Of a DNA stretch of 21,334 nucleotides, positions 4,933 through 5,181 are shown piece after piece. The DNA lies in the IMG/VR virus record IMGVR_UViG_2531839668_000009; one strand, given 5' to 3'. Source of the DNA: a virus (lineage: Duplodnaviria; Heunggongvirae; Uroviricota; Caudoviricetes). Positions within the stretch are counted from its first letter, which is position 1. Every line of letters starts with the position of its first letter. The notes beneath the pieces are model-generated. The model was not told the origin of the DNA. It saw nothing but the letters and a program-made list of their open reading frames with translations, and ran no database searches. Both the position numbers and the translations under genes were made by a program.

Positions 4933-5115
4933 TCACGATTTCAACGCAATGACCAGTTTTGCCAGCCCATACAGCATCGGAGACACAGCAATACCGACCG
5001 CCACCCACTTAATAGCAAAAGCCAGCGCTCTGCTGACGTCATCAGTTACAGGCGCTTTCAGTTCAAGGCCGTTTTTCATAGTCAATCTCAACAGAATTCG
5101 TTTATACTTTCCCAT
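4933..5115 (-). CDS. Hypothetical 60-aa tail-anchored membrane protein between endolysin and Rz (starts MGKYKR)
   Basis: Internal ATG of track ORF 4933..5193 with an AGGGAGA RBS about 5 nt upstream; basic N-terminus and one C-terminal hydrophobic helix. The longer track ORF would run through the hairpin at 5149-5181. Confidence 0.4.
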   Translation of the reverse strand: MGKYKRILLRLTMKNGLELKAPVTDDVSRALAFAIKWVAVGIAVSPMLYGLAKLVIALKS

Positions 5116-5148
5116 GTTCTCCCTTGCCTTACTCAAGGTCAGAAACAC

Positions 5149-5181
5149 AAAACCCCGTTTGCGGCCAACAAACGGGGTTTT
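5149..5181. terminator. 13-bp stem hairpin (AAAACCCCGTTTG / CAAACGGGGTTTT), terminator-like on both strands
   Basis: Perfect inverted repeat with a 7-nt loop; T-rich 3' flank on the + strand, weaker U-tract on the - strand. Confidence 0.5.

Follow-up and report, generated by a model that had tools for sequence, protein, structure and literature searches.

In lambdoid phages, a classical moron carries a sigma-70 promoter of its own ahead of the gene and a terminator behind it and is expressed from the prophage (Juhala et al. 2000 as summarized in PMC4104026). Here we describe a unit that consists of a hairpin (HP1) and a 60-aa open reading frame (ORF60) and is located between the endolysin and Rz genes of a lambdoid, E. 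coli O157:H7-type prophage. The window, i.e. the whole stretch of DNA that was analyzed, has a length of 21,334 nucleotides. As far as morons are portrayed in that source, the unit resembles them in being extra DNA at an intergenic site of the late operon that is present in some related phages only (PMC4104026). It is also, like them, small and self-contained, has a factor-independent terminator at its boundary and occupies several positions in different phages. In contrast to the morons portrayed there, the unit has no detectable promoter and its terminator-type hairpin is located 5' of the gene.

The lambda S105/S107 and phage 21 S68/S71 genes share with ORF60 that a small membrane protein is encoded in the lysis cassette and that a stem-loop adjoins the Shine-Dalgarno sequence. 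Additionally, two in-frame starts of ORF60 may give rise to a longer product that carries additional positive charge at its N-terminus. The starts of ORF60, however, are 12 codons apart (1–3 in the holin genes) and its product has one C-terminal transmembrane helix (2–3 transmembrane domains in the holins). Furthermore, ORF60 has no sequence similarity to holin/antiholin genes, is not tied to a holin family and is a gene that related cassettes can dispense with.

The Mu releasin gp25 is a DUF2730 protein of 99 aa with an N-terminal transmembrane domain (N-out/C-in) and an acidic C-terminal cytoplasmic domain (PMC9239132). Gp25 and the predicted ORF60 protein are both small, non-holin, membrane-tethered and mostly cytoplasmic and are encoded just downstream of a SAR endolysin, but ORF60 comprises 60 aa with a C-terminal transmembrane domain and a basic N-terminal domain and does not match DUF2730. 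Type I toxin-antitoxin modules such as hok/sok also encode a hydrophobic protein of 60 aa or less under tight translational control, with a coupled upstream mini-ORF and an adjoining bidirectional terminator. The unit differs from hok/sok in having no supported antisense promoter, no promoter for a toxin mRNA and no Rfam match. Superinfection-exclusion morons of the HK97 gp15 type are genes for small inner-membrane proteins among the late and tail genes of temperate siphophages. ORF60 likewise is a gene for a small, predicted inner-membrane protein that is inserted among late or tail genes, but it has no sequence relationship to HK97 gp15 and no promoter.

The lysis cassette and the coding region of ORF60

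The whole lysis cassette is located on the minus strand. Positions 4700–5300 of the window are 100% identical to many genomes including O157:H7 and O145. The region corresponds to prophage Sp14 of the Sakai strain, in which the 60-aa ORF is ECs_2740. The features are, in the direction of transcription:

6410..6204, minus strand: holin, phage-21-type class II (pinholin family PF04971)
6199..5855, minus strand: YdfR/DUF1327 gene, 114 aa, after the holin and before the endolysin
5804..5271, minus strand: endolysin (Phage_lysozyme, hydrophobic SAR-type N-terminus), upstream neighbor of the hairpin and ORF60
5149..5181, both strands: hairpin HP1 with 13-bp stem and 7-nt loop, A-run 5' and T-run 3'
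5116..5148, minus strand: leader from the hairpin to the start codon, with U-rich tract, small stem-loop and Shine-Dalgarno sequence
5115..4933, minus strand: ORF60, predicted tail-anchored inner-membrane protein (WP_001303555.1 / ECs_2740; phrog_1115)
5079..5077, minus strand: internal ATG (Met13), probable second start for a 48-aa product
4920..4789, minus strand: ORF43, second tiny transmembrane ORF (WP_001280929.1 / ECs_5740; phrog_4906)
4781..4314, minus strand: Rz i-spanin, downstream neighbor, with the Rz1 o-spanin embedded at 4561..4376

The YdfR/DUF1327 gene (5855–6199) is another non-canonical member of the cassette and is missing from some related cassettes, e.g. PhiR12_3. Just upstream of the holin gene (6465–6491, minus strand) there is a further terminator-like hairpin with 11 pairs and the tail TTTTGTTTTC, which suggests that several terminators punctuate the late region. 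A second small inverted repeat, GCGGAT-AACACRAA-ATCYGC, is present in the spacer downstream of the endolysin (~5210–5232, minus strand). This repeat (found in L013, L017, L018 and L003) is kept between E. coli and Salmonella even behind differing endolysin types, and it also occurs in the ant-type cassette devoid of the main hairpin. Elsewhere in the window, Rfam matches over the gathering threshold are located at 8699–8871 (minus strand), 16894–16945 (plus strand) and 9645–9891 (minus strand); these are STnc100 (100.8 bits), DicF (77 bits) and three tRNAs. In the Salmonella loci, STnc100 is found again ahead of the holin gene.

ORF60 extends from the ATG at 5115–5113 to the TGA at 4935–4933, and PGAP calls the identical ORF. 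An 86-aa ORF listed at 4933..5193 is an artefact of extension through the hairpin to an upstream GTG. In accordance with the original prediction, hydropathy and charge indicate that the 60-aa product is basic at its N-terminus and has a single C-terminal transmembrane helix. The hydropathy maximum (KD19 1.90) covers residues 38–56 and the flanks of this segment carry net charges of +5 on the N-terminal and +1 on the C-terminal side. Judging by hydropathy and flank charge, the protein is predicted to be tail-anchored with its N-terminus inside. The AF2 model contains just two helices (residues 3–15 and 25–59, connected by a loop) and has a mean pLDDT of 72.

Comparison of the E. coli (window) and Salmonella copies yields dN/dS values of 0.09–0.22 at dS 0.6–1.0. 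The differences between the window and L013 are distributed over codon positions 1, 2 and 3 as 9, 2 and 23. In the homologues, frame and stop position are conserved, and the start codon is either ATG or GTG. Because dN/dS is low, the differences are biased towards third positions and frame and stop are conserved, ORF60 is, on comparative grounds, a real gene under purifying selection. The original prediction would have been weakened by an ORF without coding conservation in related cassettes; the conserved frame and low dN/dS point the other way.

ORF60 aligns over its full length (residues 1–60) with positions 8–67 of the 67-position profile of phrog_1115, a family of unknown function (E 6.6e-42). 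No match was found in Pfam (E<=0.1), searches of NCBIfam and PADLOC were blank and PHROGs returned families of unknown function only. In particular, there is no PF03245 or PF06085 match (no Pfam hit) and no lipobox that would identify ORF60 as a spanin. The family comprises 118 clusters, which are restricted to Escherichia or Salmonella prophages and all annotated as 'hypothetical'. A profile search of 1.84 billion representatives retrieved only 24 clusters at E<=1e-3. The sole member of these that is not tiny, the ankyrin-repeat protein P0136, matches residues 5–35 with an hhalign probability of 16.5%, which was judged a chance match. A literature search on accessions, locus tags and small membrane proteins between endolysin and Rz returned nothing relevant.

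The leader contains a small stem-loop (CCUU-GAGU-AAGG at 5138–5127) that adjoins the Shine-Dalgarno sequence AAGGGAG (5125–5119). This ribosome-binding site had been described as strong; it is present, but with a match of 4–5 bp and a spacing of 3 nt it is better termed good. The leader is near-invariant between E. coli and Salmonella, the variable positions being those of the tetraloop; in other lineages, the place of the stem-loop is taken by a 5-bp hairpin of another sequence (CGTTA/TAACG). Between E. coli and Salmonella, leader and first ~16 codons (5060–5148, minus strand) have 1 difference in 48 nt, compared to ~26% over the remaining gene (dS ~1).

In Salmonella and E. coli B-type alleles, a strong Shine-Dalgarno sequence drives an 8-codon mini-ORF, whose TGA overlaps the GTG start of the gene (GTGA). 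In the window allele, a 23-nt deletion fused the ATG of the mini-ORF in frame to the gene and the mini-ORF arrangement is lost. In alleles that have the mini-ORF (L013, positions 2975–3010; L006, L011, L016–L018), an AGGGA...TCCCT stem covers the second Shine-Dalgarno sequence.

Met13 (ATG 5079–5077) is near-invariant across the family alignment and had been overlooked in the original prediction, as had the 43-aa transmembrane ORF preceding Rz. A GAGG sequence is located 6 nt upstream of Met13 in nearly all alleles of all lineages, encoded with a rare AGG Arg codon. In the window this element (5089–5086) is weakened to GAGA. L019 retains GGAGG before the internal start although the encoded residues differ, and in one allele the Met1 codon is ACG instead of ATG. 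Because of these features, a 48-aa product starting at Met13 is likely, either alone or beside the 60-aa form. Many database entries and gene calls begin at Met13 as well. The internal Shine-Dalgarno sequence and start account only partly for the nucleotide conservation at the 5' end.

ORF43 (43 aa) begins 12 nt after ORF60 and stops 7 nt before Rz. Codons 1–26 are conserved (Sd 2, Nd 0), the remaining 17 codons vary (pN/pS ~0.7) and frameshifted alleles are found. A homologue of 44–48 aa precedes Rz in ant-type, Stx-phage-like cassettes (L003, Sakai Sp10). Furthermore, some endolysin-Rz gaps and tail regions contain arrays of tiny transmembrane ORFs of 28–60 aa (L004, 752–1405; L012, 1550–2135; L022, 220–750; L023, 340–930). 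Many of these end in (R/K)WW and some are recombinant ORF60 fragments with their own starts. The arrays look like a wider superfamily of mini membrane proteins.

The hairpin upstream of ORF60

A perfect 13-bp-stem hairpin between endolysin and Rz had been predicted originally and is present at 5149–5181. Its arms (AAAACCCCGTTTG and CAAACGGGGTTTT) form 13 perfect pairs, six of them G-C, and enclose a loop of 7 nt. The folding energy is -18.7 kcal/mol for the plus strand and -21.6 kcal/mol for the minus strand. The corresponding z-scores are -4.8 and -4.65, and none of 200 shuffled sequences is as stable. The pattern occurs once in the window, where 0 occurrences are expected by chance. The tails are U-rich in either direction (UUUUGUGUUUCU on the minus strand, UUUUACUUUUAUUC on the plus strand). 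Thus, as far as its predicted fold goes, HP1 is shaped like an intrinsic terminator on either strand, i.e. a GC-rich stem-loop followed by a U-rich tract. The gap between HP1 and the ATG of ORF60 is 33 nt.

The hairpin is present upstream of all 131 units obtained from an IMG/VR pattern scan and other loci, in at least 20 sequence variants. In all members inspected it is located 30–95 nt 5' of the ORF, whatever gene precedes. These preceding genes encode lysozyme, GH19, M15 peptidase, Ant, a 93-aa ORF or tail-fibre or baseplate proteins. In an alignment of 13 diverse homologous hairpins, the pairing is conserved (91% of cells paired) and compensatory changes are found at 5 pairs. The covariation score is 0.294, compared to 0.108 in shuffles; none of 500 shuffles and no slid control reaches 0.294. 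In L019 and L021, the hairpin of the unit is present in addition to a terminator that belongs to the upstream gene. In L022, two tiny ORFs are arranged in tandem and each has one hairpin. Because the hairpin is linked to the ORF irrespective of the upstream gene, is additional in L019 and L021 and is paired with each ORF in L022, it appears to belong to the ORF and not to the gene upstream.

A known conserved non-coding element spanning hairpin and ORF would have argued against the original prediction. An Rfam scan of the window and six related loci at gathering thresholds detected no family at the hairpin. In a permissive scan only sub-threshold terminator look-alikes were found, the best with 20–25 bits versus thresholds of 47–50 (e.g. 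ohsC with 20 bits versus 50).

Distribution and genomic context of the unit

The full-length unit is present in 995 of 5426 complete E. coli genomes, including O157:H7 and ATCC 25922. It is also found in phage genome records that list E. coli C and K-12 as hosts (PhiR12, PhiR5). As proposed originally, ORF60 is an addition to the canonical S-R-Rz/Rz1 set and not a part of it, and comparison with related cassettes revealed a presence/absence polymorphism. L024 and L025 have a holin of the same family, YdfR and lysozyme but no unit; R overlaps or abuts Rz in both and there is nothing between. In L003 and Sp10 (Stx-phage type), the same gap contains ant and the ORF43 homologue but no hairpin. Located at 2655–2837 in L010 (phiSTEC1575-Stx2k) is an ORF60 homologue that is followed by a 60-aa lipobox protein (LLVGC), and this cassette has no annotated Rz.

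At least four unrelated sets of holin and endolysin precede the unit in different phages, namely S21 pinholin with lysozyme, HP1-type holin with lysozyme, lambda-S-type holin with GH19 and two holins with M15 peptidase. The holin families seen with it include PF04971, PF16080, PF05106 and others. Approximately 95% of the sampled close relatives are located in lysis cassettes with ORF43 or Rz next. Distant members are found in tail regions, where they follow tail-fibre or tail-assembly genes or a gpV-like gene or adjoin G/GT-like chaperones. Judging by this distribution, the unit of hairpin and ORF is optional and mobile. Because of the varied holin and endolysin contexts and the members in tail regions, a generic accessory cassette is favored over a cognate antiholin. 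The original suggestion of an antiholin or lysis inhibitor is not supported by these contexts, whereas that of an inserted moron is roughly right and the unit is most probably a real, common and conserved accessory cassette. Extra DNA at a variable site agrees with a moron, but an own promoter and a 3' terminator are lacking and the terminator-like hairpin precedes the gene. The unit is thus best filed, by its apparent layout, as an atypical moron-like insertion with the terminator 5' and no promoter.

The unit is carried by about one in five complete E. coli genomes and is embedded in one of the best-studied gene sets. If ORF60 affects lysis timing, spanin action or DNA entry, an accessory layer would be added to the S-R-Rz paradigm, and phage release could be influenced in prophages like those of Shiga-toxin-producing strains. 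The strict linkage of hairpin and gene offers a clean, small model for the silencing of accessory genes in late operons and for their movement between phages. If the protein has no measurable effect, it would simply be another conserved hypothetical moron-like gene.

Expression and possible roles of the unit

The chances are about even that temperate enterobacterial phages share a small mobile accessory cassette, of which this locus is one copy, and that the cassette is gated by the hairpin to late expression and has a role that does not depend on a particular holin. Its parts would be a bidirectional terminator-type stem-loop, a short structured leader and the gene of a very small, tail-anchored protein of the inner membrane. 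The cassette would have entered the gap between endolysin and Rz, a hot spot where other phages carry ant. A promoter search of positions 4200–6700 identified no sigma-70-like site on the coding strand and two on the plus strand only. Since there is no promoter between hairpin and gene, transcription would depend only on polymerase that reads through the hairpin. In the lambda late operon, RNA polymerase modified by Q resists terminators, and in a lambdoid late operon the enzyme that reads through would be the Q-modified one.

The hairpin would thereby silence the membrane protein and the spanins behind it in the lysogen and become transparent after Q acts. The ORF60 protein would be made only late, alongside the lysis proteins. 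Spanins complete lysis and, because their genes are located behind the hairpin, late transcription must pass it in spanin-dependent phages. In most alleles translation may be further tuned by the leader hairpin at the Shine-Dalgarno sequence, the 8-codon mini-ORF coupled to the GTG and the internal start. Our best guess for the role is a late-acting inner-membrane factor that is generic and not holin-specific. Such a factor might modulate membrane or spanin behavior at lysis or block DNA entry.

Some distant members are located inside tail operons of phages that possibly have no Q-type antitermination, and L076 looks Mu/P2-like. A strong terminator in a tail operon would be polar, so the hairpin may instead be an element of RNA stability or processing. 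Since ~95% of the sampled close relatives are found in lysis cassettes, the role may also be lysis-specific. The proposed cassette furthermore accounts only in part, through the internal Shine-Dalgarno sequence and start, for the strong nucleotide conservation of the leader and the first ~16 codons.

That the unit is a moron expressed in the lysogen is rather unlikely. ORF60 would then be a small inner-membrane protein that confers superinfection exclusion or another conversion phenotype, as does HK97 gp15. Small inner-membrane proteins of morons often block DNA entry. The presence/absence polymorphism and the classical insertion sites (R-Rz gap, after tail fibres, beside tail chaperones) are consistent with such a moron. 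L019 furthermore has a terminator after the gene; in the window, by contrast, no hairpin is found downstream of ORF60, where ORF43 and Rz are next. Expression in the lysogen is difficult to reconcile with the short gap between hairpin and gene (33–60 nt; 33 nt in the window), in which there is no promoter-like site, and the terminator-like hairpin would block entry from any upstream promoter.

An association with the spanins, in which the tiny transmembrane proteins act on Rz/Rz1, e.g. on the N-terminal transmembrane domain of Rz, is improbable. In lysis-cassette copies the next downstream gene is always Rz, or ORF43 and then Rz, and in B-type alleles the stop codon overlaps or abuts the Rz start (TGAtATG). 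The PF03245 Rz is a constant neighbor while holins and endolysins vary. This association may be trivial, however, because the PF03245 Rz is near-universal in these phages. Additionally, there is no adjacent Rz in the tail-region members or in L010, where a small lipoprotein is next.

We give a similarly low probability to a self-contained, mobile, late-gated membrane-effector cassette that serves any late operon as a holin-independent device for lysis timing or membrane permeabilization. The 60-aa form (extra charge +4) and the 48-aa form would be a pair of inhibitor and effector. Terminator and structured leader would prevent a potentially toxic, tail-anchored peptide from being made before the onset of antiterminated late transcription. 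The effector cassette may also resemble a type I toxin.

A cognate lysis regulator is quite unlikely. Here ORF60 would target the S21-type pinholin or the SAR endolysin of this cassette as an antiholin, a lysis inhibitor or a helper of the releasin type. Its position in the lysis cassette directly after the endolysin speaks for regulation of lysis, as do the location of ~95% of the sampled close relatives in lysis cassettes and the predicted single-pass topology with a charged cytoplasmic N-terminus. The possible dual start recalls holin/antiholin pairs. The unit is, however, also associated with HP1-type holin and lysozyme, lambda-S-type holin and GH19 and two holins and M15 peptidase, and members are found in tail regions while there are S21-type cassettes without the unit. 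Furthermore, the architecture is opposite to that of the Mu releasin gp25 and ORF60 has no Pfam hit.

A module resembling type I toxin-antitoxin systems is very unlikely. ORF60 would be a small hydrophobic toxin and a plus-strand antisense RNA, which covers the ribosome-binding site, would end at the hairpin. A promoter-like site of the plus strand is located in codons 3–12 (TAGTCA-18-TATACT, 5079–5108), the plus-strand U-tract is good and the predicted RNA of ~75 nt folds into two hairpins. Furthermore, the mini-ORF coupling resembles mok/hok and the nucleotides of leader and 5' coding region are unusually conserved. The weak score of the plus-strand promoter, however, is matched or beaten by 17–42% of synonymous recodings of the same peptide in each of the 7 lineages tested, and selection for an antisense promoter is thus not indicated. 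No Rfam family is found at the site (best 20–25 bits, as above) and no Hfq-bound sRNA (EcOnc peak) is listed at the Sp14 position (~2,692,100). The antisense geometry is attractive, but it is unsupported by the recoding test, by Rfam and by the published sRNA peaks of EHEC.

A spurious ORF, with only the hairpin functional as a terminator after the endolysin, can be dismissed as next to impossible. The small size of ORF60, the lack of a known domain and the purely hypothetical annotation would agree with a spurious ORF, but dN/dS is 0.09–0.22 at dS up to 1 or more, frame, stop and protein alignment are conserved and changes are biased towards third positions.

The published sRNAs of EHEC prophages were also considered for the identity of the element and rejected. 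AgvB and AsxR (anti-sRNAs) are located at the PR' moron site, and HnrS (EcOnc10–12) is located downstream of Rz in Sp9, Sp10 and Sp12. In L007 (Sakai Sp10), HnrS/EcOnc11 is found at ~1520–1570, just downstream of Rz on the opposite strand; in the window, which is of the Sp14 type, this position is instead taken by pchC and AT-rich DNA.
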